Positions 22,301-47,420 of a stretch of DNA of 64,000 bases are shown piece by piece. Below the pieces are notes generated by a model, which worked only from the letters and a program-made list of their open reading frames with translations, did not search any database and was not told the DNA's origin. The stretch spans positions 1-64,000 of the forward strand of contig CBDVDR010000014.1 in the NCBI GenBank assembly GCA_965372795.1, written 5' to 3'. The position numbers were made by a program, and so were the translations under genes. The stretch comes from an uncultured bacterium (GTDB lineage: Bacteria > Zixibacteria > MSB-5A5 > GN15 > FEB-12). Position 1 is the first letter of the stretch; each line of letters starts with the position of its first letter.

Positions 22301-24079
22301 TGCAAGGTGTTTGGAAACACAGAGGATCAATTACTGGGACAAAAATTTATGCTCAAGGTCCATGAAGATGACCATGAAAGCACCGCCAAAGAGATGGAAA
22401 AATTGTATCGCCCGCCACACACTGCATACGTTGAACAACGGGCTATGACAAAAGACGGCTGGAGATGGCTCGGCTGGATGGATACCGCTGTTCTTGACGT
22501 TGAGGGGAACGTGACTTCAATCATAGGTGTGGGTCGTGATATCACTGATCGCAAACGGGCTGAACAAAACACAAGAGATTTAGCTAACATCCTGGAGAGA
22601 TCACTTAATGAAATTTATATTTTTGATACTGAGAGTTTAAAGTTTATTAATGTCAATTTCGGTGCACGAGAAAATATTGGGTATTCACTGGAAGAACTTT
22701 CAAAAATGACTCCGTTGGATATTAAGCCAGAATTTACCAGAGAATCATTTATGCAGCTAATCGAACCACTAAAAAACAATACTAAAGAGCTAATTTCCAT
22801 TGAAGCTGTTCATAAGAGAAAGAACGGGTCGACATACGATGTTGATGTTCATCTTCAATTATCAGAATTTAACGGAAAATCTGTATTAGTCGAAATAATT
22901 CTTGATATCACAGAGACTAAACGATTGCAGAAACTGGAATCAAGAGCACAACGATTAGAAATGGCAGGAACAATTGCAGGACAGGTTGCCCATGACTTTA
23001 ATAATCTTTTGGGTCCAATTATGGCATACCCTGAATTTATTCGAAGCGGCCTGCCAAATGATCATCCAACTTTAAAATATTTAGACCAAATTGAAAAGGC
23101 ATCGATTAAGATAGCAGAAATTAACCAGGACTTATTAGCTATGGGTCGAAGAGGACATTACAATCAAAAAATCTTAAACTTAAATACAATCGTTCAACAA
23201 ACCTTAACGGATTTGAAGCCTTATCCCAATACACTCACTTTTGATTTAAATTTAAATGACGATTTAAATAATTTTCGTGGCGGCGGGGCGCAAATTCATC
23301 GAATGATCAGCAATCTTCTTCATAATGCAAAAGATGCTATGCAGGATATTGGGATAATAGATATTAAAACTGAGAACTACTATGTTGATGATGTTTCAAT
23401 AGTTTACGGCCGGGTTCCAAAGGGGGAATATGTAAAATTAACTATATCTGATAATGGTTGTGGTATTCCTGATGACATTGTCCAGAAAATTTTTGATCCT
23501 TTCTTTACATCCAAGAGAACTAATATGAATCATGGTTCGGGGCTTGGGATGAGTGTTGTAGATGCGGTTATTAAAGACCACAAAGGATTTATTGACTTGA
23601 GTACCAAAGTCGGTGAAGGTACTTCTTTTTATATCTATTTACCTATCACGCTTGAGACGGTTGATATAAAGGATGCCAATAAAATTATGGGCGGAGAAGA
23701 ATCGATATTAGTTGTTGATGATGATGATATTCAGCGTGAAGTTTCAACTGTAATACTCACAAAGCTTGGATACAATGTAAATTCTGTAGAAAGCGGCGAG
23801 AAAGCTATTTTATTCCTGCGTGAGAATCCGGTGGAGCTTGTCATACTTGACATGGTAATGCCGGGCGGGATTGATGGGACTGAAACCTATCGACAAATTC
23901 TAAAAGTAAATTCTGTTCAAAAGGCAATTATTTTATCAGGTTTTTCAGAATCAAGCAGTGTTTTAGAAGTTCAGAAATTGGGTGCCGGTGCCTTTGTGAA
24001 GAAACCTGTTACTTCAAAAACAATTGCCGCCGCTGTGAGAACTGAACTTGATCGACCCAAGAAAATATCTAATTTGTAA
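19379..24079 (+). CDS. Hybrid sensor histidine kinase (2 TM, helical periplasmic domain, Gln-rich heptad repeat, PAS, GAF, 5 more PAS, HisKA, HATPase, REC)
   Basis: VAHDFNN, NLLHNA, DNGCGI, GSGLGM and a receiver domain; repeated DITERK-type PAC ends; starts 17 bp after cheD. Confidence 0.95.
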   Translation: MKNKSDDKNLLVKKDNDDIIPISFTRKAWKVYLQVSFIGLIIAATMWYVLNTGSQIAKQYTPLIDAIIEIKYESTIAHLWFEEIISGDKNEDIETVWHHINKAEWYSLAMLEGGQKEDVHFIALKDPDLRIGITKILENIRAFRVIAKERYAQLNLSTVGSDIDQRFDFVFRSVLDQAENVETSLHQVIKKVNKRFETVQYALIVLCFLLAGFIGMILNRYKRHQEINMMKLKASNQELIASEQQLKATNQQLLASEQQLRATNQQLMASEQQLRDTNLHLLQSQQKLSLHVQQTPLGVIQWDLNFKVTEWNKSAENIFGFTYEEAIGQHASGLIVPDSAKDAVDKVWNNLLAQRKETKSSNENVTKNNKTIICEWYNTPLIDDEGKTIGVASLVLDVTKRTRLENTIRKLVEGTSSQSGRGFFESMAIHLAKNLDADYTFIGEFNKGQEDLIKTIAVTAEGKLEENIEYGLVDTPCENVMGKHACSYTSGVADQFPKDLLLKQMGVEGYVGVPLFDSKNKPLGILAALYRNPIDETDFKEGILKIFSSRIESEMERAIADKALRESESKLLKAQKLAGLGHYVFEVNSGNWTNSIELDILFGIDENFVRNLDGWLEIIHPDFKEIMLNYVQDDVLKQHNHFDKEYKIIDLATGQEKWVHGLGNLKFDNAGNPTEMFGTIQNITERKQAEEALLDSQERFKKLSNLTFEGIIIHNNGITVDVNESLTKLLGYSRNEIIGKNIIELCVPPEYHAAIQENIIKKETKPYELIAIKKDGTLIPVEVEARDIKGDDDELRVTAIRDISKRKQAEEELRDSEEKYRSLYEETPAMLHSIDKHGKIVSVTEKWLEKLGYTEDEVLGRKSTDFLTDKSKQFAIDEVLPNFFKTGHSEDIPYQYVKKNGDIIDVLLSATSEQTKDGKIVRSMASLIDITERKHAEEALLESEQNFRLLVENQNDMVVKVDTEGRFQFVSPSYCKVFGNTEDQLLGQKFMLKVHEDDHESTAKEMEKLYRPPHTAYVEQRAMTKDGWRWLGWMDTAVLDVEGNVTSIIGVGRDITDRKRAEQNTRDLANILERSLNEIYIFDTESLKFINVNFGARENIGYSLEELSKMTPLDIKPEFTRESFMQLIEPLKNNTKELISIEAVHKRKNGSTYDVDVHLQLSEFNGKSVLVEIILDITETKRLQKLESRAQRLEMAGTIAGQVAHDFNNLLGPIMAYPEFIRSGLPNDHPTLKYLDQIEKASIKIAEINQDLLAMGRRGHYNQKILNLNTIVQQTLTDLKPYPNTLTFDLNLNDDLNNFRGGGAQIHRMISNLLHNAKDAMQDIGIIDIKTENYYVDDVSIVYGRVPKGEYVKLTISDNGCGIPDDIVQKIFDPFFTSKRTNMNHGSGLGMSVVDAVIKDHKGFIDLSTKVGEGTSFYIYLPITLETVDIKDANKIMGGEESILVVDDDDIQREVSTVILTKLGYNVNSVESGEKAILFLRENPVELVILDMVMPGGIDGTETYRQILKVNSVQKAIILSGFSESSSVLEVQKLGAGAFVKKPVTSKTIAAAVRTELDRPKKISNL
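20072..20212 (+). repeat. In-frame 42-bp tandem repeat (about 3.3 copies) encoding ASEQQL(K/R)ATNQQL(L/M)
   Basis: Near-identical units at 20099-20140 and 20141-20182, with partial copies on both sides. Confidence 0.95.
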
Positions 24080-29468: not shown

Positions 29469-32315
29469 ATGAAAGACCACCGAGAAACTAAAAAGCAACT
29501 AATCAAAACAATAAAGACGCTGCGTCAACAGCTCAGTAATTTTCAATCTGGTGATAATTCAGACCAATTTAATAATCATAAAAGTTCGGATATAAAATTG
29601 ACTCCGCCAACGAATTCCCCCAATAATGAATTTGAATATTTATTTAACGAATCACAACTCGTTGCCAAACTTGGCACATATTTACTGGATATAAAAACCG
29701 GAGTATGGACAAGTTCTGATATGTTAAACATCATTTTTGGGATTGATGATAATTACATAAAAGATAATAATGGGTGGTTTCAAATACTTCATCTTGATTA
29801 TAAGGAAGAATTACAACATTATTTTCTAAATGATGTATTAAAGAATAAAGAAAATTTTGATAAAGAATATAAAATTATAAGTTTTGATGATAAAAGAGAA
29901 AAATGGGTTCATGGATTAGGGGAGCTCAAATTTGATTCGGATGGAAATCCAGTTAGTATGCTTGGAACGATTCAGGATATAACCGAGCGAAAACTATCGG
30001 AAGAAATAATACGAAAATCTGAAGAACGACTTAGAACTCATTTAGAACAATCGCCTCTGGGTTATATCGAATTTGACTCAGAATTTAATATAAAGGAATG
30101 GAATAAATCAGCAGAGGTTATATTTGGATATACCAAAGAAGAAATCCTCGATAACCATGGCTCGTTGTTAATACCAGAGCATCTAAAAAAAGAATTTTTT
30201 ATTACTTTTAATGAGTTATTGAATTTCCGAGGAAAGAAACTATATACCTATCCCAATATAACTAAAACAGGTGAAACAATTATATGTGAGTGGTATAATA
30301 CACCGTTGATTAATTCAAATGGCAGTACCCTTGGAGTTGCCTCTTTAGTTATTGATGTTACTAAACAGAAACAAGCAGAAAAATCATTACTAAAAAGTGA
30401 AGAGTTTAGCAGGGCATTAATAGAAAATTCTCCGTTAGGAATATCGGTTAGAAATACTTATGGAAAATTATTGAGTGTTAACAAAGCCTGGCAAAATATC
30501 TGGGGAATATCGAATGCTCAGGTAAAAGAATTTATGTCAATAGATCCAAAAGAATTACTTTTTAACGATCAAGATCGTTATATCAACAGATGGATTCCTC
30601 AATTAGAAAAGGTATACAAAGAGGGCGGACAATTTTATATCCCTGAGTTACCTCTAACTACTCAAAGCTCAACCGGAACGAAATGGGTATCGCAAACTTT
30701 TTATTCTATCAATAATGAGAATAATTCAGTAGATCATGTGGTTATTATAACTCATGATATTACCGAACGAAAAGAAGCTGAGATGGCAGTAATTGAGAGT
30801 GAAGAAAAATTTAAGAATATTGCCAATCATATGTTTGATGTCATAACAACTATAGATTTATCAGGTAAATTATTATATGTCTCACCTTCAATTAGAAGAG
30901 TCTTCGGTTATACTCCTGAAAATCTAATAGGCAAGAATATCATGGAATTTGTCCCCGGTGATGAAATCCCCCATGCTCTGGAATCTTTTGATATGAGTGC
31001 TCAAGGAAAATTGGTTGAACATTTCCCCTCTGAGTTTATCAAGAAGGATAATTCGATTGCAAAAATTCAAGTAAATGCATTACCTGTTTATAAAGATGGC
31101 GAGATTATTGGGGCACAAGCAATTCTTCATGATGTAACTGAGGAAACAAGGCTTCAGGAACTTGAATCCCGCGCTCAGCGTCTTGAGGCTGCCGGGAGTA
31201 TCGCCGGTCAAATAGCTCATGATTTTAATAATTTGCTGGCACCTATGACAGCCTATCCCGATTTTATAAGAGAAGAACTTCCGGAAGGCCATCCAGCCTT
31301 AGAGTATCTTGATGATATTGAACGCTCTGCTTATCAGATTGCTGATATCAATCAGCAACTATTGACATTAGGCAGGCGGGGCCATTATAATCAGGAACCT
31401 TTAAATTTGAACGATATCATCCCCTTTGCCATAAAGGAAAATGTTAAGATAACAGACAGCTTAATTTGCAAGTTGGATCTTGCCGGCGACTTAAAGAATA
31501 TGATGGGTGGTAATGCACAAATTTATAGAGTAATATCCAATTTATTGATAAATGCCAGTGATGCGGTTCATGGTTCCGGGAAAATAATAATTAAGACAGA
31601 AAATATAAATCTTATAAAAGTATCTTCAAAAATCAATCAAGTTCCTAAAGGCAGCTATGTAAAGCTGACAGTTAAAGATAATGGCTATGGCATACCGGAA
31701 GATAAGATTACAAAAATATTTGATCCTTTCTTTACCCTTAAAACAACCGATAAAAAACGCGGTTCGGGTCTTGGCTTAAGTGTCGTGGATACGGTTGTCA
31801 AAGATCATGATGGCTATATTGACCTGATTACAAAAGAGGGAGTCGGCACATCATTCTATATTTATTTCCCTATCACAAATGATTCAGTAAAACCGGAAGA
31901 GGTGGAATCATTCTTAGGGGGGAATGAATCTTTGCTGGTTGTTGATGACGATAATGTCCAAAGAGAAGTAACTTGTAAGCTTCTTAACAAGTTAGGTTAT
32001 AATATCACCACGGTGAATAGTGGTGAAAAGGCGATTGAAATTTTAAAACTAAACCAGTTTGATCTTCTAATTCTCGACATGGTTATGCCTTTGGGAATAG
32101 ATGGAGCTACAACTTACCAGAAAGCTCTGGAAATAAATCCAGATCAAAAAGCTATAATCGTCTCTGGATATTCAGAAACTGATCGCGTTACAAAAGCTCA
32201 ATCATTCGGTGCCGGTGAGTTTATTAAAAAACCATTGACTCAAAAAATTATCGCTAAGGCTGTTAGAAAAGAACTTAACAGAAAAATGAGTGAATGTTTA
32301 ATCGCTGAATATTAA
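29469..32315 (+). CDS. Cytoplasmic hybrid histidine kinase (4 PAS, HisKA, HATPase, REC)
   Basis: No TM segment; IAHDFNN, NLLINA, DNGYGI, GSGLGL, receiver domain. Confidence 0.95.
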   Translation: MKDHRETKKQLIKTIKTLRQQLSNFQSGDNSDQFNNHKSSDIKLTPPTNSPNNEFEYLFNESQLVAKLGTYLLDIKTGVWTSSDMLNIIFGIDDNYIKDNNGWFQILHLDYKEELQHYFLNDVLKNKENFDKEYKIISFDDKREKWVHGLGELKFDSDGNPVSMLGTIQDITERKLSEEIIRKSEERLRTHLEQSPLGYIEFDSEFNIKEWNKSAEVIFGYTKEEILDNHGSLLIPEHLKKEFFITFNELLNFRGKKLYTYPNITKTGETIICEWYNTPLINSNGSTLGVASLVIDVTKQKQAEKSLLKSEEFSRALIENSPLGISVRNTYGKLLSVNKAWQNIWGISNAQVKEFMSIDPKELLFNDQDRYINRWIPQLEKVYKEGGQFYIPELPLTTQSSTGTKWVSQTFYSINNENNSVDHVVIITHDITERKEAEMAVIESEEKFKNIANHMFDVITTIDLSGKLLYVSPSIRRVFGYTPENLIGKNIMEFVPGDEIPHALESFDMSAQGKLVEHFPSEFIKKDNSIAKIQVNALPVYKDGEIIGAQAILHDVTEETRLQELESRAQRLEAAGSIAGQIAHDFNNLLAPMTAYPDFIREELPEGHPALEYLDDIERSAYQIADINQQLLTLGRRGHYNQEPLNLNDIIPFAIKENVKITDSLICKLDLAGDLKNMMGGNAQIYRVISNLLINASDAVHGSGKIIIKTENINLIKVSSKINQVPKGSYVKLTVKDNGYGIPEDKITKIFDPFFTLKTTDKKRGSGLGLSVVDTVVKDHDGYIDLITKEGVGTSFYIYFPITNDSVKPEEVESFLGGNESLLVVDDDNVQREVTCKLLNKLGYNITTVNSGEKAIEILKLNQFDLLILDMVMPLGIDGATTYQKALEINPDQKAIIVSGYSETDRVTKAQSFGAGEFIKKPLTQKIIAKAVRKELNRKMSECLIAEY

Positions 32316-32468: not shown

Positions 32469-33137
32469 ATGAAAAGAACAGCAATTTTTGCCATGGTAGG
32501 TTTGATTCTGATAGGATCTTTCGGGTGTGGTGCCTGGAAAAAAAGAGACAAAGGCGCATTAATCGGTGCCGGTGCGGGAGCTGTAATTGGTGGTATCATT
32601 GGCGATAAAGCCGGTAATACTGCGGTTGGGGCAATCATCGGAGCCGCAGTTGGCGGAGCTGCCGGAGCCTATATAGGTAATTATATGGATAATCAAGCAG
32701 CGGAAATTCAAAGAGATTTAGAAGGTGCCAGAGTCGAAAGGATCGGTGAAGGGATTAAAATTACCTTTGATTCCGGTATTCTGTTTGATATCAATTCTTC
32801 ATCATTGAGACCGATTGCTAAAGATAACTTGGGTAATCTTGCCGGTATTTTAAATAAATATTCAGATACAGAGATTCTTGTAGAAGGTCATACTGATGCC
32901 ACCGGCTCAAACGATCATAATCTGAACCTGTCTATGCGTCGGGCTCAATCAGTTTCCAACTATATGACTACTCTGGAAGTTTTCTCTAACCGATTTAGAA
33001 TTATGGGATATGGCGAAGATCAACCAATCGCCAGTAATGATACAGAATCAGGACGTCAGGACAACCGCCGGGTTGAAATAGCTATCTTTGCTAATGATAA
33101 ACTTAAAGATGCTGCAAAGGCTAAAACTGAAGGATAA
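32469..33137 (+). CDS. OmpA-family lipoprotein with glycine zipper (YiaD-like)
   Basis: SFGC lipobox, GALIGAGAGA zipper, EGHTD, NLSMRRA, NRRVEI. Confidence 0.93.
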   Translation: MKRTAIFAMVGLILIGSFGCGAWKKRDKGALIGAGAGAVIGGIIGDKAGNTAVGAIIGAAVGGAAGAYIGNYMDNQAAEIQRDLEGARVERIGEGIKITFDSGILFDINSSSLRPIAKDNLGNLAGILNKYSDTEILVEGHTDATGSNDHNLNLSMRRAQSVSNYMTTLEVFSNRFRIMGYGEDQPIASNDTESGRQDNRRVEIAIFANDKLKDAAKAKTEG

Positions 33138-33159: not shown

Positions 33160-33189
33160 AAGGCTGGAATTTATTCCAGCCTTTTTTTT
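33160..33189 (+). terminator. Intrinsic terminator after the OmpA-family gene
   Basis: AAGGCTGGAAT-TT-ATTCCAGCCTT followed by a T tract. Confidence 0.85.
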
Positions 33190-33273: not shown

Positions 33274-34515
33274 TTGCATAATAGAAACTTCAATATCTTT
33301 CGATACCCCATCAGTATAGGTTTAATTTTAGCAATATTATTGATTATTAGCAATGGAACTGCTAATTCGATTGAGTTGCGGGGGAAATTTAACTCTGATT
33401 TATATATCTGGACAGACAGTTCCGAATCCCATTTCAGACCGTATGAACAATTAAGAACCGATATTATTTTTTCAAGACCATCCCGAGGCAAACAGATATC
33501 TTTTCACTCAAATATCAGATGGAGAAACGATTTTCAGGATCAGCTCCCGGATGACCCTCAATTATTTATTTATGATGGTTTCTTAAGAATTGAAAACATG
33601 ATCGGGTCAAGCCTGATACAATTAGGCCGTCAATATTATTACAATGGTGCCGGAAGCGCCCATTTTGACGGACTTAGAACTCAATACAAATTCGGTAAAA
33701 AGTTTAAAGTTAATTTTTTTGGAGGAAGCCGGGTAAACCGTCTTGACCCTGAGACAATTAAATCATTTTCAGAATCCGGAATTATGGGGAGTAAACTTCA
33801 AATATCCGGAATCAGAAGAACAAATTTGAACTTTAGCTGGCTGGCAAAGCTCGAAGAAGATAATATTGTTTATAATAAAGCCACAATAGATATTAAAAAA
33901 AGAAGCCGGTTTTGGGTTTTTTATGGTAAAGCAGGATTTAATATTCTCAATAAGCGATTATCGGATATTTTATCCCGCGCAATTTTCACAAATAATGAAT
34001 GGCGGATTTCTGCTGAATACAGCAAACGAGAACCTTCTCTGTTTGGAAATACAATTTTCTCTATCATTGACTATAAAAAAAATAAAACTCTAAGATTAAA
34101 TCTGAATCGTCATATTAATAGCAGGTTATCAATATTTAGCCGTTATCAAGTAAGTTTTTTCTCAGCTGAAAACTCGCGCTTGTACAATTTTGGTTTCAGT
34201 TTTAAAAATATTACTCTCTCCTATTATAAACAGACCGGGTATGGTGGAAAAAATAGCGGATTTTCAGGATCGGCATATCACTCATTAAACAGTAACTGGC
34301 AAACTTATGCTCGATTCAATTTAAGTAAATATAAAATTCAATCACTTCAGTCTGATAATTACAAAGCCTATACAGCGGCTTTTGGAATGGACAGGAAATT
34401 TACCGGAGGCTGGGTAGTCAGAGGTGAATATCAATATTTGAAGAATGCGATTAGCAATAATGATGTTCGGTTGTACTTCAGGGTAAGTAAGAATTTTGTT
34501 TTAGGGAAGATATAA
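33274..34515 (+). CDS. Putative outer-membrane beta-barrel porin of a porin-cytochrome complex
   Basis: Signal peptide; alternating aromatic-rich strands; LGRQY..HFDG; terminal strand YFRVSKNF; 5 bp upstream of a multiheme cytochrome. Confidence 0.75.
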   Translation: MHNRNFNIFRYPISIGLILAILLIISNGTANSIELRGKFNSDLYIWTDSSESHFRPYEQLRTDIIFSRPSRGKQISFHSNIRWRNDFQDQLPDDPQLFIYDGFLRIENMIGSSLIQLGRQYYYNGAGSAHFDGLRTQYKFGKKFKVNFFGGSRVNRLDPETIKSFSESGIMGSKLQISGIRRTNLNFSWLAKLEEDNIVYNKATIDIKKRSRFWVFYGKAGFNILNKRLSDILSRAIFTNNEWRISAEYSKREPSLFGNTIFSIIDYKKNKTLRLNLNRHINSRLSIFSRYQVSFFSAENSRLYNFGFSFKNITLSYYKQTGYGGKNSGFSGSAYHSLNSNWQTYARFNLSKYKIQSLQSDNYKAYTAAFGMDRKFTGGWVVRGEYQYLKNAISNNDVRLYFRVSKNFVLGKI

Positions 34516-34520
34516 AGATA

Positions 34521-35570
34521 ATGAGAAAAATAATCGGGCTTGGTCTTATATTATTATTAATGGTAAGTTTAAGCTGGGCGAGCTATAACCGGCTTGAAGC
34601 ACGATTGGTTATCCCGGAAACAAGTTTGATATTTTCCCATTCTTTTCATGTTGATGAACAGGAGATTGAATGTACCTCCTGTCACCCGGAGATTGAAAAC
34701 AGCAAGCTGTCCTCCGATAGAAATCTGCCAACTATGGAAGAGTGTGAAGCCTGTCATGATGTTGATGATGATGAAACCTGTGGGATGTGTCATAAAGTTG
34801 CCGATGAACCGGAAGAATTAATTAACCCGGACAGACCAATAGATTTCAATCATGAGCTGCATCTATCTTCAGGGATGGAGTGTTCTGGCTGTCATGGTGA
34901 GGTTGGCAAAGTAGAAATCCTTACCGATGATAATCTCCCGGATAAGAAAACATGCATGAACTGTCATAATAATGTTAAGGCGGATGGCTCCTGTGAAAAA
35001 TGTCACAGCGACAAAATAACGCTTACAGACATACACCCCAAAGAGTGGCGGCATACCCATGCGGAGAATATAAATTTTGACAACGAATGGTGCAGTAACT
35101 GCCATAAAATAGAACGTGATTGTCTTGAGTGCCACAAAGGTGACAACACTACCGGAAAGATTCACGACCTGAACTATCGTTTGACTCATGGACTTGATGC
35201 TAACAGCAAAGCTCTTGATTGTCAAAAATGTCACGACCGTGAAAATTTCTGTAACACCTGTCATATTCGTGAACTTCGACTGCCGTTGAATCATTCGTCA
35301 CTTGGATGGATAGGACAACATTCTCAAGCAGCAAAAAATGATATTGAAAATTGCGCTTCCTGCCATATGTCTGATGATTTAACCTGCGCCCGAGCCGGAT
35401 GTCATTCTGATTTTGACGGGATCAGGGGAACTGACCCTAAAATTCATATTAGCGGAGCCGAACAGTTTGAATCCGAGGGAGATTGGCATAATGACAATAA
35501 TTTTTATTGTTAAAAATGTCATACTCGTTCAAACCAAACAGAAATAGGATTTTGTTCTTATTGTCATTAA
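34521..35570 (+). CDS. Periplasmic multiheme c-type cytochrome (c7/c3-like modules), interrupted by an in-frame TAA at 35511-35513
   Basis: 11 CxxCH plus 1 CX4CH before the stop. The frame continues C*KCHTRSNQTEIGFCSYCH to TAA at 35568-35570, giving 14 motifs if intact. Confidence 0.9.
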
Positions 35571-35594
35571 TGATGATAGGATACCGGGAGTTAA

Positions 35595-38500
35595 TTGATG
35601 CTGATTAAAAATATGATTAAAATTTTCATATTAGGGATAATATTCTGTTTTTTTATTATAGCAGGGTGCAGTGATAAAAATGATTTTCAGAATGAATCCC
35701 ATCCGGATTCCTGGATGGATGTTAATTCATCTGATTTCCATGGTCATGTTACCCTTGTAAACGGAGATGATCATTGCAAACGCTGCCATGGAGATGATCT
35801 CAATGGCGGTGATGTGGAAATATCCTGCGTTGATTGTCATCAGCACGAAAATGCCTGTTCAAGCTGTCACGGTGGAAAAGATAATCTGACCGGCGCCCCG
35901 CCATTTGGATTACATGGTGAAATAGATGATACAACTTTAGCCGTTGGCGCCCATACGGCTCATGTCGAATCCGGTGAAATTGCAGCAGCTTTAAATTGCG
36001 AAGTTTGTCACATCATGCCGACAACAATGATGGATTCGGCTCATTTCAATTTTGTACTTATTGACAGCATCTTAATATTAGATTCGATAGCAGAAATTAA
36101 TTGGAGCGGTATCGCCGGAGAAGATGCTGATTGGGGCAGATCTGATAGAAAATGCAACAACACTTATTGTCATGGTAATTTTTCAGGCGGTGACAGTTTA
36201 AACTCCCCGGTCTGGACGGATGCAAATCAAGCTGAGTGCGGTTCATGTCATGATGCTGGTACTGATCCGGCAAGTCTGTTATGGCATCATGAATTTCATA
36301 TTTCAACTGCTGGCTTAAATTGTTCAGATTGTCATGCCGGTGTTGTCGATTCCTTGTTGAACATTACTGATATCAGTCTTCATGTGAACGGTCTTGTTGA
36401 TACATTGGTAAACGATATTTCCCTATGCAGCAGCTGTCATGGAAGCGGATCGGCATCCTGCACCGGATGTCACGGCGGGACCGATAATTTATCCGGGGCT
36501 CCCCCGTTTGGGTTGCATAGTGAAACAGCTACAACCGAAAGAGCTGTCGGAGCCCATACCGCTCATCTATCAGATAGTGATATTACGGATGCTTTTGAAT
36601 GTTCCAGTTGTCATTTGGTTCCGAATTTCCTATCAGATGAAGGTCATCTGGGTGATGATTCAATAGCCGAAGTTTCATGGAGTTTCCTTGCCGGAGAACA
36701 AACTATCTGGGATCGTGACATTCAAACTTGTTCAAATTCTTATTGTCATGGTAATTTTACCGGCGGTTATGATTCCAATTCTCCAAGATGGAATCAGGAA
36801 AATCAGGCTGAATGCGGATCATGTCATAATGTTGGAAGTCGTCCAAGTGACCTGGGTTGGAAGCATGAGTTCCATATCACCTCAGCCGGCTTGGATTGCA
36901 GTAACTGTCATTCAACAGTTATAGATTCAAATTTAGTAATAACCGATATAACTTTGCACGTCAACGGTAATGTTGACACCTTGACATCTGATACAACCTT
37001 ATGTGTCAGCTGTCATAGTGATGGAGCCCTCTCATGTACCGGCTGTCATGGCGGTGATTTAAATGATACCGGTGCCCCTCCCAAAGGATTAAGCGGTGAA
37101 ACGGCTACTACTGATCTTGCTGTTGGTGCCCACACTGCTCATGTCAGTGGTGGATCAATCGCCAATGCGATGACCTGTGCTGCCTGCCATTTGGAGCCGG
37201 ACAACATAGCCTCCCCCGGACATTTAGACCCTGATTCAATCGCGGAATTAACCTGGGGCGATATATCAGGCGATCAATCTATCTGGAACCGCAGTAATGC
37301 CAAATGCAGTAATGTTTATTGTCATGGTAATTTCACCGGAGGTAATAATGCCAATGCACCAATCTGGACAGGAACCGATCAAGCATCCTGCGGATCATGC
37401 CATAATGTTGATAACAATTATGCCAACTTAAAATGGGAGCATCAACTTCATATAGAAATCGGCGGACTTGCGTGCGATGATTGTCATTCCTCGGTTGTTA
37501 ATACCAGTTTACAAATAATAAACACTTCTTTGCATGTTAACGGCTCGGTTGATCTGCTGACTAAAGATCAGGCAAAGTGTGATGTATGTCATAAGCCGGG
37601 AGCGGTGTTGTGCACGATGTGTCATGGCGGTATCGATAATCAAAGCGGGGCGCCTCCCACATCATTAACCGGAGAAACTCTGCCAAGTCACATTTCAGTT
37701 GGAGCACATAGTTCACACATAGACGGCAATGTTTTATCTGATGGGGTTGAGTGCAACGACTGTCATGAGGTTCCGGTCGCTGTTTTAGAAGCCGGACATA
37801 TTGATGCTGATTCAATTGCAGAATTAAGTTTCAATGGAATCTCGGGTTTCCAATCCGATTGGGATCGAGTTTCGGAAAGTTGTTCTGATACTTATTGTCA
37901 TGGGAATTTTAACGGCGGGAATTCTTCGAACAGTCCAAGCTGGACCGGATTAAATCAGGCAGAATGCGGATCGTGCCATAATGATGGTTCTCAGCCTGAT
38001 GAGCTTAAATGGAAACATAAATATCATATCACTGATTTAAATTTTGAATGTGTCGATTGTCATGCAAATGTGGTGGATCTTGATAATAATATTATCGGCT
38101 TTGACCTGCATATAAACGGTGTTGCCGATACACTGGCGAATAATCCGGCGGCGTGTAATGCCTGTCATGGTCCTGTAGGAGTTACTTGTACTTTCTGTCA
38201 TGGTGGTACTGATAATATCACAGGCGCACCTCCCCAAGGTCTCGATGATGAAGTAGCTACATCCGAACTGGCGGTTGGTGCCCATACTATCCACTTGGAC
38301 GGTGGGTCAAAGTCTCATTCGTTTGAATGCAGCACTTGTCATCTCGTTCCAGTTGTAGCTTTAGATTTAAGTGAAGCCCATTATATGGAAGTTGAACCTG
38401 ATGACATTGCAGAAATTATCTGGGGTGGATTATCCGGTGAAAATGCAAACTGGGACCGTAACGATTCGACCTGTAGCGGGACCTATTGTCATGGAGATTT

Positions 38501-38819
38501 CCGAGGTGGTAACCAAGCTAACTCACCGAACTGGACTGGAGGTTCGGTAGAAGGTCAATGCGGTTCTTGTCACGCCTTTACAATTGAAAATTCTAACTTG
38601 CTGCTTGATAAACATGAAAAGCATGTTAAGGATGAAGATATTGAATGTTACCAATGTCATAATTTAACAGTTGATCAGAATTTAATTATAATCGGTCATA
38701 GGTATCATGTTGACGGTATTAACACTGTTAGCTTTTCATCCGAAGAAGGCAGTTTTGATGGTGCCGGATGCTCCGGTGTTATAAGCTGTCACGGTGATAA
38801 TGAATCTAAGGACTGGTAA
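35595..38819 (+). CDS. Large multiheme c-type cytochrome lipoprotein (Geobacter-type CxxxxCH..CxxCH repeats)
   Basis: IIAGC lipobox; hand count of 26 CxxCH, 5 CX4CH and 1 CX5CH; five tandem repeats. Likely start ATG 35598. Confidence 0.95.
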   Translation: MMLIKNMIKIFILGIIFCFFIIAGCSDKNDFQNESHPDSWMDVNSSDFHGHVTLVNGDDHCKRCHGDDLNGGDVEISCVDCHQHENACSSCHGGKDNLTGAPPFGLHGEIDDTTLAVGAHTAHVESGEIAAALNCEVCHIMPTTMMDSAHFNFVLIDSILILDSIAEINWSGIAGEDADWGRSDRKCNNTYCHGNFSGGDSLNSPVWTDANQAECGSCHDAGTDPASLLWHHEFHISTAGLNCSDCHAGVVDSLLNITDISLHVNGLVDTLVNDISLCSSCHGSGSASCTGCHGGTDNLSGAPPFGLHSETATTERAVGAHTAHLSDSDITDAFECSSCHLVPNFLSDEGHLGDDSIAEVSWSFLAGEQTIWDRDIQTCSNSYCHGNFTGGYDSNSPRWNQENQAECGSCHNVGSRPSDLGWKHEFHITSAGLDCSNCHSTVIDSNLVITDITLHVNGNVDTLTSDTTLCVSCHSDGALSCTGCHGGDLNDTGAPPKGLSGETATTDLAVGAHTAHVSGGSIANAMTCAACHLEPDNIASPGHLDPDSIAELTWGDISGDQSIWNRSNAKCSNVYCHGNFTGGNNANAPIWTGTDQASCGSCHNVDNNYANLKWEHQLHIEIGGLACDDCHSSVVNTSLQIINTSLHVNGSVDLLTKDQAKCDVCHKPGAVLCTMCHGGIDNQSGAPPTSLTGETLPSHISVGAHSSHIDGNVLSDGVECNDCHEVPVAVLEAGHIDADSIAELSFNGISGFQSDWDRVSESCSDTYCHGNFNGGNSSNSPSWTGLNQAECGSCHNDGSQPDELKWKHKYHITDLNFECVDCHANVVDLDNNIIGFDLHINGVADTLANNPAACNACHGPVGVTCTFCHGGTDNITGAPPQGLDDEVATSELAVGAHTIHLDGGSKSHSFECSTCHLVPVVALDLSEAHYMEVEPDDIAEIIWGGLSGENANWDRNDSTCSGTYCHGDFRGGNQANSPNWTGGSVEGQCGSCHAFTIENSNLLLDKHEKHVKDEDIECYQCHNLTVDQNLIIIGHRYHVDGINTVSFSSEEGSFDGAGCSGVISCHGDNESKDW

Positions 38820-43516: not shown

Positions 43517-46500
43517 TTAGTACGAGCTTCCTTTATCGCGTCTTTTATGCAATTTATAATAAAGCTGCTGTTGTTCGTATTCAGAAGTCATTTCATCTAC
43601 AATATCTAAATAAACTTCTTCAAGTTTTTCTTTGTCACGACAATATGACGCAATCTCTTTCAATAATTGACTTTTTTCATAATCAGATGAAATAGCCTCG
43701 ATAGCATTCATAATGCTTAAAGCCAGTTCATCATCAAGTTCATTGTAGTTAATAATTTCATTCAAAGCGCGAGATTTTTCATAATCTGAATGAAGCTCGT
43801 TAATAATTCTTAAATAGGCATCCCGTACCTGCTTATTTTCTCGGGTACAATCAGAATGTTCTAATAGAGTTTGTACAATTTCATAATCGGATGACATATT
43901 TTCGAGCATGCTCATCATTTCGACAATCAGAGCAGCATCTTCATTACAATCATATCTTTGAGAAGTAAGCACTCTTTTCATCTCATAATCACTGTCTAAA
44001 GTAGCACAAGCCTCAAGGACTGCTTTTTTTAGGGCTGGATCATTGCGAGAGGCATCATAGAGTTCTATAAGTAATTCCGCTTTTTCGTAATCTGAAGACA
44101 TCCCCATAGTCAGATAAATCATTTCATCAATAGTTTCCGGAGAAATGTTCCTATGGCTTAGAAGTTCGAATATGACTCTTTTCTTTTCATAGTCCGAATC
44201 TATTCCCTCAATTGCCTGTACTAACAGTTTCTGAGATTCAGCATCTTTCAAATCCGTTGATGCCATATCAATCAGTAATTCGCTTCTATCATAATCAGAA
44301 TCCAAATCCTCAGCCATTTCTAAAATAGCTTTTAAAACCTGGTTGTTAACATTTCTAAATTCAATCGCCGATAAGGCTTGTCGCATCGAATAATCAGATT
44401 CTATTGTTCCAACCATATCAACATAGTCAACCAGGTATTCCTCTTTAAGATCGGTATAATCCGCAAAGCTAATCAAAAATTCGCTTTTGGAATAATCAGA
44501 ATCAATTTCTCGACTGGCTGCTCTGATTATGTCTCCAAATTCTTCATCAGACAAAGCTCTCAAAGACATTAACTCTTGATAATACAAGCTTTTTACATGG
44601 TTATTATCAATTTTAGTAATTTCTTTAAGTACTCCATCAACCCCGTCTTCACTATAATATTTTTGAACCCTCTTATCGACATTAACGCCGGTGTTTCTTA
44701 CAAGCCTTCCAATAATCTCAGCCAGCCATTCTTGCCCTGCTTGATCAAAGTCCTGAATTTTATTTTTGATTGAATATTCATATTGAAGCTCACCATTTTT
44801 ATCCGGTTCAATTTCAAGAACTGTCAATAGTTTTCCTCTACGCTGTCTGATAGAAATATACCCTCTTTTTGATATACTTTCTATTCCAGTCTCATCTTCA
44901 TTAAACTCAATATCTCCATCCATTATGATGCTGGTTTTATCATCATCATCAACCCATGAGACGGTTGTTTCTCCCTTATGCCCGGTTATAATACTAAGTC
45001 CGCTTTTTAGATAATCAAAAAATCCATTTTTGCCCGAGGAAGATGAATAAGAATATCTCAAGTGATCATCGTCATCATAAAAATAGGTCTCATTCGGTGA
45101 AGGAGCATCTGAATCTATAACGCCATCATACACAATCATCGGCATTGATGAATGTGGGGTTCTACTATTGCGTTTTGCTTTCTTTAAAGCCTTTTGGCTC
45201 TCTTCTCCCAGTTCCTGGAATATTGCCCGCATCCACTCTTTAGCATCGTCATCAAAGGTTTGCAGGCTTCCATCAACATAGTAATCATAATCAAGATTGC
45301 CACGTCGGTTTAGTTCTATGTCGAGTTCCTTATTTGGTTCACTGCGCTTATCCCTTATTGTAACATATCCATTTTGAGATAATCTTTTAATGTCTGAAAA
45401 ATCATCGGTAAACTTTACTTTGCCACCGAGGGTAAGGCGAACTTTTTTATCATCACTTTTAACCACAACTGATGAATTGCTTGAGCTTGTCGCTAAAGTT
45501 GACCAATAAGTTCCTTGAGCAGAGCCATAGGCATAATTACTTCTTGGAGCTGACTTAGATCCTGATTCATTTGTAAACACATATCGCTGATTTAAGGCTC
45601 CTTCAGATATATTGTTAAATGATACGTATTGACCTATCGCTGGTAATTCCGGCAAATCCGGAATCGGTGGGACATCAGGAATCGAAGGCAGTGTGCCAAT
45701 TGATCTCATTGCAGGAATTGAAGGTACGGTTGGTACGGTTGGCAATTTCCTATATTCTGTTAATCTTAAATTTGATATTCTATTTCTTTCTAAATTTTTG
45801 GATCCCTCTACCTCGGTCTCACCGAAGCTTGCCTGAACATCCCGATATGACATATCTGGAAACGGTAATGATGTTGCCGGTACAAACTCTATTGTTACCA
45901 TCAGAAAAACTGTGGCAATCAAAAATGCCCCGGCTATCCATCGCAAGGAAACTTTTTGAGTACGATTTCTTTTTTTCATGAGAATCCTCTCAAACCTCTT
46001 AAATATTTGTTTTCTTCCTGTGAGTGCTCCCGGAAGTAACAAGGTTCCGGTACCCGTTGATAACTGTGACAGGCGGGTTAAACACTGAGCATATCCGGAT
46101 GGATCTCCGGTTTTAGAAATGACAATATCATCACATGCGATTTCACGTTCGAAATCAAGCTGCTTACCGATCCAATGCACGATAGGATTAAAAAATAAAA
46201 CAGCTTCCAATAATTTCTGCCCAAGCTTTGCCCAATCGTCCCATCTTTGAATATGAGCCAGCTCATGACTAATAATTATTTTAAGATCATCATCAGTCAT
46301 TTTATTAATTAAATCAGTTGGGATTAATACTATCGGATTACCCAAACCGGCAGCCATTGGATAATCAATATCATCAGACAGCATTATTTTTATACTTCTG
46401 TTAGGGAGTTGTTCATTTAGGAGCAAGCGAAACCCTTGAATTTCATCAAGATCAAATAAAGTCGAGTTAGCTTTAATTTCTGTCATCTTACGATAAGCCA

Positions 46501-47050
46501 AAATAATGCGAATCAATAAAGCCGTAAAGACAATAAACCAAACAAGAAAAATTCCGAATGGGAGCATACCTAAAAGTATAGATTTTGCCGGTTTATTATA
46601 TTGAATGTCATTAAGCAATAATGAAGGATTTGTCGACCCAACAAATTGTGCATTATCACTTAAGAGAGTACGGTCTGGTGCCTCACGATTAAAGTTCAAA
46701 TTCTGGATTTTACTCTGATCAGCAGTATTGACTACAATAGGTTCACTTTGTTGAGCTACAAATTGGGAACTGTTATTAGTTCCCATTTTTTTAATTTGAT
46801 TAAAACTTATATCCGGAAGAGTCGGGAAATAATTTGATGATAACGGTAATATAATCGCTGCTGTTAAAACCACCCACCACACAACATATTTTGTAGCGGC
46901 ATTCACTTTCTGGCTTCGCTGCCAAAACAAAAATAGAACCAGACTCAATGTCATTGCTATAACAATGCTGTAAATTCCGAAGTATAATGATGAATGTGAG
47001 ATGCTATTGAAAAGATTAAATAGTGTTTCCATTTTATTTATCCTGCTCAA
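43517..47050 (-). CDS. M56 (BlaR1/MecR1-like) metallopeptidase sensor with Pro-rich linker, duplicated beta module and SDYE helical repeats
   Basis: N-terminal TMs, HELAHIQRWD, FFNP, REIACD; no penicillin-binding domain. Likely start ATG 47032. Confidence 0.92.
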   Translation of the reverse strand: MSRINKMETLFNLFNSISHSSLYFGIYSIVIAMTLSLVLFLFWQRSQKVNAATKYVVWWVVLTAAIILPLSSNYFPTLPDISFNQIKKMGTNNSSQFVAQQSEPIVVNTADQSKIQNLNFNREAPDRTLLSDNAQFVGSTNPSLLLNDIQYNKPAKSILLGMLPFGIFLVWFIVFTALLIRIILAYRKMTEIKANSTLFDLDEIQGFRLLLNEQLPNRSIKIMLSDDIDYPMAAGLGNPIVLIPTDLINKMTDDDLKIIISHELAHIQRWDDWAKLGQKLLEAVLFFNPIVHWIGKQLDFEREIACDDIVISKTGDPSGYAQCLTRLSQLSTGTGTLLLPGALTGRKQIFKRFERILMKKRNRTQKVSLRWIAGAFLIATVFLMVTIEFVPATSLPFPDMSYRDVQASFGETEVEGSKNLERNRISNLRLTEYRKLPTVPTVPSIPAMRSIGTLPSIPDVPPIPDLPELPAIGQYVSFNNISEGALNQRYVFTNESGSKSAPRSNYAYGSAQGTYWSTLATSSSNSSVVVKSDDKKVRLTLGGKVKFTDDFSDIKRLSQNGYVTIRDKRSEPNKELDIELNRRGNLDYDYYVDGSLQTFDDDAKEWMRAIFQELGEESQKALKKAKRNSRTPHSSMPMIVYDGVIDSDAPSPNETYFYDDDDHLRYSYSSSSGKNGFFDYLKSGLSIITGHKGETTVSWVDDDDKTSIIMDGDIEFNEDETGIESISKRGYISIRQRRGKLLTVLEIEPDKNGELQYEYSIKNKIQDFDQAGQEWLAEIIGRLVRNTGVNVDKRVQKYYSEDGVDGVLKEITKIDNNHVKSLYYQELMSLRALSDEEFGDIIRAASREIDSDYSKSEFLISFADYTDLKEEYLVDYVDMVGTIESDYSMRQALSAIEFRNVNNQVLKAILEMAEDLDSDYDRSELLIDMASTDLKDAESQKLLVQAIEGIDSDYEKKRVIFELLSHRNISPETIDEMIYLTMGMSSDYEKAELLIELYDASRNDPALKKAVLEACATLDSDYEMKRVLTSQRYDCNEDAALIVEMMSMLENMSSDYEIVQTLLEHSDCTRENKQVRDAYLRIINELHSDYEKSRALNEIINYNELDDELALSIMNAIEAISSDYEKSQLLKEIASYCRDKEKLEEVYLDIVDEMTSEYEQQQLYYKLHKRRDKGSSY

Positions 47051-47420
47051 AATCAGTTACCATCTGTTTCAGCCGTTCCAGTTCCTCTTTGCTCATTGAA
47101 TCATTTTTTAAAACACTCAATAATAAAAGCTCCGGAGAGTTATTAAAAAAATTCGAAACCATATGTTGTAATGCTTTCCCCTGCGCCTGGATTTGGCTGA
47201 CCACCGGAATATAAACATGAGCGCGACCTTTTTTGACTCTGCGGAGTTGACCTTTATCTTCAAGAATTCGCATAGTTGTTAAGACCGTGTTATATGCGGG
47301 TCGATCATTTTCCGGTAGAGCTTCAATAACGGCATTAACGGTTGCTTCTGTAAGTTTCCAAATTACCTTCATTAGCTTCAGTTCGGCTTCGGTTAAAGTT
47401 GGAGATTTTTTTCGTGGCAT
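47034..47420 (-). CDS. BlaI/MecI/CopY-family repressor
   Basis: LTEAELKLMKVIW, AYNTVLTTMRILEDKG, GRAHVYIP, FFNNS. Confidence 0.95.
   Translation of the reverse strand: MPRKKSPTLTEAELKLMKVIWKLTEATVNAVIEALPENDRPAYNTVLTTMRILEDKGQLRRVKKGRAHVYIPVVSQIQAQGKALQHMVSNFFNNSPELLLLSVLKNDSMSKEELERLKQMVTDFEQDK

Follow-up and report, generated by a model that had tools for sequence, protein, structure and literature searches.

A predicted Pcc-type porin-cytochrome conduit with a five-unit multihaem outer cytochrome in a Zixibacteria genome

The stretch of DNA analysed here, called the window throughout, comprises positions 1 to 64,000 of contig CBDVDR010000014.1 in the assembly of an uncultured bacterium of the Zixibacteria (GCA_965372795.1). 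We examined three genes in its middle, all on the forward strand, that encode a small barrel-like protein and two multihaem cytochromes and that are predicted to form a porin-cytochrome (Pcc) conduit across the outer membrane. Only 5 nucleotides (nt) separate the barrel gene from the middle cytochrome gene, and 81 nt separate the latter from the outer cytochrome gene. The tight three-gene operon and its upstream boundary consist of the following features, each gene being an open reading frame (ORF):

33160-33183, + strand: terminator-like hairpin with a 10-bp stem (5 GC pairs) and a 4-nt loop, followed by a T-run
33274-34515, + strand: barrel gene, 413 residues, signal peptide
34521-35513, + strand: middle cytochrome gene, 330 residues as encoded (translation table 11)
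35595-38819, + strand: outer cytochrome gene, 1074 residues, lipoprotein

The hairpin, which sits 3' of a gene for a YiaD/OmpA-family lipoprotein (32469-33137; Pfam and NCBIfam), is the upstream edge of the operon. The OmpA-family gene was considered as a member of the system and was ruled out, because the terminator lies between and the upstream genes vary among 11 relatives. The three ORFs, their coordinates, their tight spacing and their separation from ompA by a terminator were thus confirmed as given in the initial annotation.

As encoded, the middle cytochrome contains 11 CxxCH motifs and one Cx4CH motif behind a signal peptide identified by eye. The outer cytochrome contains 26 CxxCH, five Cx4CH and one C-terminal Cx5CH motif ('CH' total 32) behind a lipobox, IIAG/C, also identified by eye; its likelier start is the ATG at 35598, preceded by GGGAG 8 nt upstream. 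The encoded total is therefore 12 + 31-32 = 43 haem motifs, or 44 counting the Cx5CH. The initial annotation had put up to 14 motifs in the middle cytochrome and about 46 in the pair, figures that hold only with read-through of an in-frame TAA at 35511-35513. When each cytochrome was shuffled 1000 times, CxxCH occurred on average 0.14 (middle) and 0.26 (outer) times, with maxima of 2 and 3, so that the real haem motifs lie far beyond chance. With 25 histidines for 12 motifs in the middle protein and 73 for 32 in the outer one, the histidine supply would, by count, be sufficient for bis-histidine ligation. The described contrast of charge was also recovered, with a computed isoelectric point (pI) of 10.07 for the barrel, 5.10 for the middle and 4.59 for the outer cytochrome; in the close clade, the barrel pI was 9.0-10.1 in 21/21 loci and the cytochromes were acidic in 20/21. 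The proposed layout of a porin, a periplasmic cytochrome and a lipoprotein cytochrome is supported.

The barrel protein contains no cysteine. Its AlphaFold2 (AF2) model, built from a 6-row alignment, had a predicted local distance difference test (pLDDT) of 78.7, and 22 beta-strands, joined by short connections at either side, were counted in it. When this model was compared with 48,161 chains by VIA-align, the top matches were the 22-strand barrels of TonB-dependent transporters (BtuB, Cir, FptA; Z 19.3-19.2, about 340 residues, root-mean-square deviation (rmsd) 3.7-4.3 Å), the best being BtuB (Z 19.3, rmsd 3.7 Å, 339 residues onto BtuB 135-594, plug excluded). MtrB (6r2q_B) ranked 19th, with Z 15.8 and rmsd 5.2 Å over 336 residues. 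Foldseek returned generic outer-membrane barrels only (FimD usher, OccK, MOMP, AlgE), at E about 3e-8 and a template modelling score of at most 0.48. Compared with TonB-dependent transporters, with which it shares only 7-10% identity, the barrel lacks a plug, a TonB box and long extracellular loops. The plug of such transporters is about 150 residues long; the mature barrel protein has only about 380 residues in all and gave no Plug or TonB_dep_Rec match in Pfam. The identity of a TonB-dependent transporter was therefore ruled out, since only the barrel part aligns and there is no plug domain. In its model, the 413-residue protein is a 22-strand beta-barrel that has short loops and no plug of its own, which upholds its initial description as a beta-barrel; its modelled girth resembles that of barrels that usually enclose a plug.

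In the middle cytochrome, c7-like modules had been proposed, and a match to PF14522 (c7; E 2.2e-15, 56.7 bits versus a cut-off of 24.8) supports them, in the N-terminal half only. Its best sequence relative in the PDB was 3ov0_A (E 1.7e-26, profile residues 32-164), annotated only as 'cytochrome c family protein', which we take to be the Geobacter c7 polymer GSU1996; MtrA (6r2q_A) was reached at E 5e-3 only.

We then co-folded barrel residues 31-413 with cytochrome residues 21-330, using 72-row alignments of barrels and their adjacent cytochromes. The interaction prediction score from aligned errors (ipSAE) was 0.80, 0.78 and 0.79 (median 0.79) in the three runs, compared with 0.00 for the best of three controls, in line with the pairing that the initial annotation had suggested checking. 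The mark for this score is met by 116 of 157 solved complexes and by 2 of 215 mismatched pairs, and it is only a rough guide here since our own alignments were used. At least 84% of the contacts were common to the runs, and the partners had a pLDDT of 70-72. On the barrel side, the contacts fell on every second residue, facing the lumen, of strands around the entire wall (such as 286/288/290/292/294 and 363/365/367/369). On the cytochrome side, they spanned residues 150-289, including the invariant IHDLNY..THGLDA stretch. Of the 19 conserved barrel residues, ten belong to the interface, which comprises 106 residues (odds ratio 3.1, one-sided Fisher p 0.016). In the tightest listed pairs, residues 210-225 of the cytochrome touch strands 18-22 and strand 1 at ends that, by the usual parity of outer-membrane barrels, may tentatively be placed on the extracellular side. 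From these strand-end contacts and this parity, the model would tentatively place the c7-like N-terminal part in the periplasm and the C-terminal two-haem tail outside. The C-terminal part of MtrA likewise emerges outside.

The association of the genes was analysed at two scales. A word-index search found five barrel relatives, at 29-37% identity, and a HMMER profile of those five retrieved 533 cluster representatives at E<=1e-3, 121 of them at E<=1e-30. Matches in the ESM Atlas were to unnamed clusters only, commonest in Zixibacteriota and Thermodesulfobacteriota, and NCBIfam assigned no family to the 15 of 150 listed relatives that were submitted, taken from the weaker part of the list. A pattern scan of the genome contigs with the 6-row barrel alignment gave 77 stretches and no relative. 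The barrel profile matched in 12 of the 61 genomes from the same order, one of them being the window's own. In all 11 relatives, the next gene encodes a cytochrome of about 350 residues with 13 CxxCH and one Cx4CH motif (one with 14 CxxCH), and then comes a lipoprotein cytochrome of 491-960 residues, one locus being cut by a contig end. A second survey started from the cytochrome alignment and covered a collection of species-representative genomes, where 80 loci were kept from 91 relatives. In 78 of them, the gene directly upstream of that for the 14-haem cytochrome is the barrel gene, the other two having no upstream DNA, and a further cytochrome was found close downstream in 76 of the 80, with Cx3-4CH motifs in 71 of these 76. 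This survey of synteny, also among the checks initially suggested, showed a conserved pairing of the barrel and 14-haem genes.

The nearest loci (41-53% identity) are mostly labelled Zixibacteria, and a second tier (29-36%) carries the labels Ignavibacteria, Melioribacter, Bacteroidota, Calditrichota, KSB1, Eisenbacteria, Gemmatimonadota and Chlorobiaceae. The initial assignment of the DNA to a Zixibacterium agrees with how the nearest loci and the Atlas clusters are labelled. Of 285 genomes searched in the window's phylum, 73 have a match to the barrel (52 of the 198 of good quality; 43 of 130 by genus). Its occurrence is patchy in the window's own family (17/107) and near-universal in some other families (9/9 and 14/15); a genome of the same genus gave no barrel match. 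The conduit proteins of six loci (L022, L023, L024, L027, L036 and L039) cluster tightly with Zixibacteria-labelled ones, yet they are labelled 'uncultured Ignavibacteriales', 'Candidatus Deferrimicrobium' or 'Candidatus Latescibacterota'. This mismatch may reflect unreliable labels of metagenome-assembled genomes (MAGs) or movement of the cluster between phyla.

These data bear on whether the operon encodes a conduit at all. It could instead combine an ordinary diffusion or uptake channel with redox enzymes, periplasmic or at the surface, that act on a soluble substrate and merely share the operon; the structural neighbours of the barrel are indeed transporters and porins, no family model names it, and the cytochromes alone give no substrate. 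We regard this explanation as highly improbable: the barrel gene almost always accompanies the 14-haem gene, the barrel has none of the plug, TonB box or long loops of an uptake protein, and the co-fold puts the cytochrome in the lumen, with conserved barrel residues enriched at the interface and controls at zero. A Pcc-type porin-cytochrome conduit that connects the periplasm to the cell surface, most likely for outward electron flow, is in our judgement the probable function of the operon.

Among known conduits, the closest likeness is to a predicted one. In Ignavibacterium album, the Pcc cluster comprises the porin-like IALB_1839, the 400-residue cytochrome IALB_1838 with 14 motifs, the outer cytochrome IALB_1837 with atypical motifs and an associated periplasmic cytochrome, IALB_1840; its proteins were described as remote relatives of the other Pcc proteins, and Pcc was described there from genomes (Shi, Fredrickson & Zachara 2014, PMC4245776). 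The published I. album cluster is thus a genomic prediction, not a characterised complex. An I. album-labelled MAG (locus L052) carries a 4-haem gene, a barrel gene, a gene for a 14-haem protein of about 411 residues and one for a lipoprotein with 6+1 motifs. Compared with these, the window's proteins showed 22% identity for the barrel (E 2e-18), 33% for the middle cytochrome (7e-57) and 34% for the outer cytochrome (4e-37). Judging from the 14 motifs, the length of about 400 residues and the gene order, the L052 locus would correspond to the published IALB_1839-1837 locus, L052 being a MAG and not the type strain.

The window shares with the Pcc of the I. album and Melioribacter roseus type the gene order, the barrel size, the 14-motif middle cytochrome and an outer lipoprotein cytochrome with a CxxxxCH/CxxCH domain. 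The differences concern the cytochromes. In the Ignavibacteria-labelled loci examined, the outer cytochrome has one unit (about 314 residues in L052 and 293 in L065, mostly about 290-370 in that clade), whereas that of the window has five in 1074 residues. Most loci labelled Ignavibacteria have, in addition, a 4-haem gene upstream and frequently also a gene for a cytochrome with 9-16 haems; the window has neither. The middle cytochrome has about 350 residues with 13 CxxCH and one Cx4CH in the window, counted with read-through, compared with about 400 residues and 14 CxxCH in Ignavibacteria.

Previous reports are consistent with this relationship. Ignavibacteria porins have been called Geobacter-like or OmbB-like (Fortney et al. 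2018, PMC6137239; Arbour et al. 2020, PMC7399161), and Geobacter-like Pcc operons were already reported in Zixibacteria (FeGenie, PMC7005843). The first Zixibacteria genome paper describes, in the sections available, a different, MtrAB-like cluster that lacks outer cytochromes (PMC3903129), and the available sections of the Melioribacter multi-omics paper do not treat the conduit cluster (PMC5492636).

The initial annotation regarded the three genes as a distinct conduit family, a claim that is not supported: all three are syntenic homologues of the I. album-labelled cluster that matches the published Pcc, and both the fivefold occurrence of the Geobacter domain TIGR01904 and the FeGenie report on Zixibacteria speak against it. 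Nor is the cluster a close orthologue of a characterised conduit, its relatives being distant and no characterised member having been found among them. On the homology evidence, the putative conduit belongs to the I. album-type Pcc subfamily, as a member from the Zixibacteria clade, and is not a new family.

The Pcc systems of Geobacter sulfurreducens (OmbB-OmaB-OmcB, ExtABCD, ExtEFG and ExtHIJKL) follow the same principle of a small barrel with a periplasmic cytochrome and one or more lipoprotein cytochromes. Geobacter Pcc barrels have 18-22 predicted strands (PMC4245776, PMC6148476). With 22 strands in the model, the window barrel falls in this porin range of 18-22 and is smaller than MtrB, and the middle cytochrome, with 12 motifs (14 with read-through), falls in the Pcc periplasmic range of 5-14. 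The haem numbers differ, OmaB having 8 haems and OmcB 12, compared with 12/14 and 31-32 in their counterparts here. TIGR01904 had no match in 14 control genomes, apparently because none of them is a Geobacter.

The Shewanella MtrCAB complex (6R2Q) is alike in plan, with a cytochrome threaded in a barrel and a surface lipoprotein cytochrome as a cap. The solved MtrB has 26 strands, compared with the 22 counted in the window model. MtrB_PioB (PF11854) matched neither the barrel at E<=0.01 nor anything elsewhere in the genome, and the DmsE/MtrA family (TIGR03508) did not match the middle cytochrome at E<=0.01, which has 12/14 motifs and not 10. The MtrC/OmcA domains (PF22113, TIGR03507) did not match the outer cytochrome; a borderline PF22113 match was seen on the middle cytochrome (31.4 bits versus a cut-off of 30). 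Membership of the Mtr/Mto/Pio group was therefore ruled out, in agreement with the initial remark that the components do not look like MtrA, MtrB or MtrC.

The end of the middle cytochrome gene requires separate consideration, since its stop codon interrupts a haem motif:

35511-35513, + strand: in-frame TAA inside the 13th haem motif (C-stop-K-C-H)
35514-35570, + strand: continuation in the same frame, 18 codons (KCH...GFCSYCH) followed by TAA TGA TGA

The continuation encodes the remainder of haem motif 13 and the whole of motif 14, which are lost if the TAA is real. At the site of the stop, ten aligned relatives have C-[F/Y]-x-C-H, their proteins are 345-354 residues long, and the tail is conserved, with nearly invariant C and H columns. 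The counts of CxxCH and Cx4CH among 72 homologues were (14,0) in 46, (13,1) in 19, (12,0) in five and (13,0) in one, the window protein alone having (11,1). Five of the 72 (L050, L054, L080, L082 and L097) naturally end just past haem 12, without the whole tail, and a 12-haem form is thus not necessarily dead. A reassigned TAA was ruled out because TAA ends 891 of 1391 long ORFs in this genome, which makes it the most frequent ordinary stop codon.

The conduit might accordingly be broken or decaying in this organism, with the TAA a genuine nonsense mutation and a 12-haem cytochrome unable to reach its outer partner. A TAA inside haem motif 13 is the sole such case among the 72 homologues, the codon is an ordinary stop in this genome, the lost tail would, from the co-fold, be the very end predicted to leave the barrel, and the genome of the same genus without a barrel match fits a losable accessory trait. 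Against this, the 18 downstream codons are intact, conserved and reach the usual end point, the barrel gene and the 1074-residue gene are intact, and the natural 12-haem homologues evidently can serve. The intact partners in the operon indicate that the TAA is very recent, a consensus error or tolerated, and we give a broken conduit only a small chance. As a separate observation, the window is not the only place with interrupted conduit genes: two MAGs labelled Ignavibacteriales (L076 and L088) have the barrel gene divided between two ORFs, and L088 has a divided 14-haem gene as well, which may be due to assembly errors or decay.

What sets the predicted conduit apart, as judged from its protein sequence, is its five-unit outer cytochrome with 31-32 haems. 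This protein consists of the lipobox, a short leader that holds a single CxxCH, five units of about 192 residues in tandem and a short tail with the Cx5CH. The units are located as follows:

35823-36401, + strand: hexahaem unit 1, residues 77-269
36399-36977, + strand: hexahaem unit 2, residues 269-461
36975-37553, + strand: hexahaem unit 3, residues 461-653
37551-38129, + strand: hexahaem unit 4, residues 653-845
38142-38720, + strand: hexahaem unit 5, residues 850-1042, the most divergent, which groups with the last units of relatives

Each unit contains five CxxCH and one Cx4CH, and pairwise identity is 42-57%, a divergence that marks the units as old; Tandem Repeats Finder found no repeat at the DNA level in the gene. 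TIGR01904 matched in five stretches (E 1.1e-45, 153.3 bits versus a cut-off of 27), as did PF09698, with one TIGR01904/PF09698 domain per unit, and the five separate TIGR01904 matches in the whole genome all lie within this gene. A PDB sequence search gave no match at E<=0.01. Two tandem units were modelled poorly by AF2 (pLDDT 63.3), and Foldseek returned nothing for this model at E<=0.001, a result that is uninformative on the novelty of the fold.

The number of units varies among relatives. In the 17 complete close-clade relatives, two units were found in 10 loci, three in 3, four in 2 and seven in 2; this census excludes L033, L037, L038, L041, L042 and L043, which were cut by a contig end, fell outside the coordinate filter or had no downstream cytochrome found. 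The seven-unit proteins have 1521 and 1662 residues with 46 and 43 motifs, and the outer cytochromes of L052 (labelled I. album) and L065 (labelled M. roseus) have one TIGR01904 domain each. In a maximum-likelihood tree of 56 units, the first units formed one clade (18 rows, support 98/90), with the last units outside it. The internal units of each seven-unit protein were monophyletic (99/96 and 100/95), which indicates that the chain was lengthened independently, by internal duplication, in two lineages. For the window's internal units, pairing with internal units from other proteins was weak (support 84-90). As a speculative extension, the outer cytochrome could be a surface-tethered, monomeric 'haem ruler' whose copy number, changed by independent duplication, sets the reach of the conduit, and the 22-strand barrel with its 14-haem insert could be a second independent solution to the MtrAB problem; we hold this idea tentatively and think it possible rather than likely.

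The remainder of the genome (3.35 Mb, 98.65% complete) encodes 36 ORFs with at least two CxxCH motifs and was searched for partners. The haem-attachment and quinol partners whose search had been recommended were located as a ccsB/ccsA pair with further CcmF-like genes, usable for haem attachment, and as an NrfH-like candidate. The latter is a 663-residue membrane-anchored cytochrome (contig C12, 104186-106177, - strand) with 17 CxxCH and one atypical motif, whose N-terminal anchor and first haems are NrfH-like (E 5e-11, below the curated cut-off); it is possibly a quinol dehydrogenase fused to a long haem wire. A QrcA/ActA-like pentahaem cytochrome is also encoded. On contig C16 (66269-69468, - strand) lie adjacent genes for a 26-haem (662 residues) and a 16-haem (403 residues) cytochrome of the doubled-CXXCH/DmsE-like type. 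Orthologues of this pair (47-48% identity) stand immediately upstream of the barrel in the Zixibacteria-labelled locus L048, which suggests that the pair is functionally tied to the conduit, its members being likely periplasmic feeders.

Other observations were made around these genes. Near the pair on C16 there are genes for large signal-peptide proteins, such as a 703-residue one at 72824-74935. A second large cytochrome island is found on contig C2 (22583-55671), where a ccsA/ccsB (System II) pair adjoins a 3038-residue ORF with 11+1 haem motifs, with about 10 more multihaem cytochrome genes (4-17 motifs) in the same stretch, and contig C7 (120923-132462) has six adjacent multihaem cytochrome ORFs with 8-13 motifs each. 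A CcmF/CcsA-family match on contig C9 (70034-70576, - strand) contains one in-frame TGA, which may denote selenocysteine, a frameshift or a broken gene.

The same conduit might also work inward and bring into the periplasm electrons that Fe(II), a cathode-like mineral or a syntrophic partner donates, to serve an oxidative or lithotrophic metabolism or electron exchange between species. Porin-cytochrome conduits are reversible in principle, and the Mto and Pio relatives of Mtr work inward (PMC4245776, PMC3903129); the three COX1-family oxidase genes of this genome offer possible sinks. Nevertheless, the inward MtoAB/PioAB and RBG-1 MtrAB clusters are described, in the sections available, as lacking an outer cytochrome, and Castelle et al. 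(PMC3903129) argued for oxidation from that absence, whereas the window encodes a surface cytochrome with 31-32 haems. No RuBisCO was found in the nearly complete genome, other routes of CO2 fixation lying outside that search, and M. roseus, the cultured holder of a related cluster, reduces Fe(III) (Fortney et al. 2018, PMC6137239). Inward flow is therefore, in our view, rather improbable.

Gene content, haem motifs, homology and synteny are direct results, as are the barrel fold and the insertion within their models, and from them we infer how an outward conduit would be loaded with haem and lie in the membrane, which way its electrons would flow, and what its substrate and activity would be. 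The 413-residue protein would span the outer membrane as a 22-strand barrel that has no plug and is basic inside. After export by Sec, the acidic 14-haem cytochrome would be threaded through this barrel, its c7-like N-terminal part (haems about 1-5) remaining periplasmic, residues about 150-289 filling the lumen and its two-haem C-terminal tail lying outside. The tail would pass electrons to the lipid-anchored 31-32-haem cytochrome, whose five tandem CxxxxCH/CxxCH hexahaem units would extend the haem path away from the cell. Electrons from respiration would most likely flow outward to Fe(III) or Mn(IV) minerals or to other insoluble or partner acceptors, and would be fed in by periplasmic multihaem cytochromes and the NrfH-like quinol dehydrogenase encoded elsewhere in the genome.

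Several points weigh against such an outward conduit. Its function is assigned by analogy: our literature searches brought up no genetic or biochemical work on any member of its subtype, the I. album-type Pcc. The barrel has no Pfam or NCBIfam match, and a PDB sequence search with its profile returned nothing at E<=1. The tie to Geobacter runs only through the TIGR01904 domain and the 3ov0 match. The co-fold was made without haems and, as an MtrAB-like architecture is already solved, its passing the mark may partly be a learned likeness, while the orientation depends on 25 listed contact pairs and the usual strand parity. The TAA, as it stands in the assembly, would remove haems 13-14 and with them the predicted outer contact. 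Finally, the window gives no clue to the substrate, and the neighbouring hybrid kinase and RND (resistance-nodulation-division) efflux genes are unrelated.

As for these neighbours, hybrid histidine kinases of 1566 and 948 residues, with multiple PAS and receiver domains, are encoded at 19379-24079 and 29469-32315 on the + strand; 150 nt separate the end of the second from the OmpA-family gene, and the relatives showed no conserved association of the kinases with the conduit. On the downstream side, the RND efflux operon lies on the opposite strand and is convergent with the conduit operon. Farther on (43517-47420, - strand), a gene for a BlaR1-type M56 peptidase/sensor of 1177 residues overlaps one for a BlaI/Penicillinase_R repressor. 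In relative L013, a similar BlaR1/BlaI-like pair, of 653 + 132 residues (similar by size only), is found near the conduit.

Porin-cytochrome conduits underlie the respiration of minerals, electrodes and partner cells by Gram-negative bacteria. To our knowledge, the Mtr complex is the only conduit with a solved structure, and genetic work is confined to the Geobacter and Shewanella systems. The family described here is widespread across lineages of the Fibrobacterota-Chlorobiota-Bacteroidota (FCB) type, in MAGs labelled Zixibacteria, Ignavibacteria, Bacteroidota, Calditrichota, KSB1, Eisenbacteria and Gemmatimonadota, and barrel profiles like those built in this work could name the conduit in MAGs where it is now annotated as 'hypothetical'. 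If confirmed, the compact 22-strand sheath with its 14-haem insert would be useful for comparative mechanism and engineering, and the outer cytochromes would provide a natural length series, from 7 to about 46 haems, with which to probe reach in relation to mineral or partner respiration. Were the 'haem ruler' idea true, such proteins would offer cells another means of medium-range extracellular electron transfer in place of polymerised cytochrome filaments.

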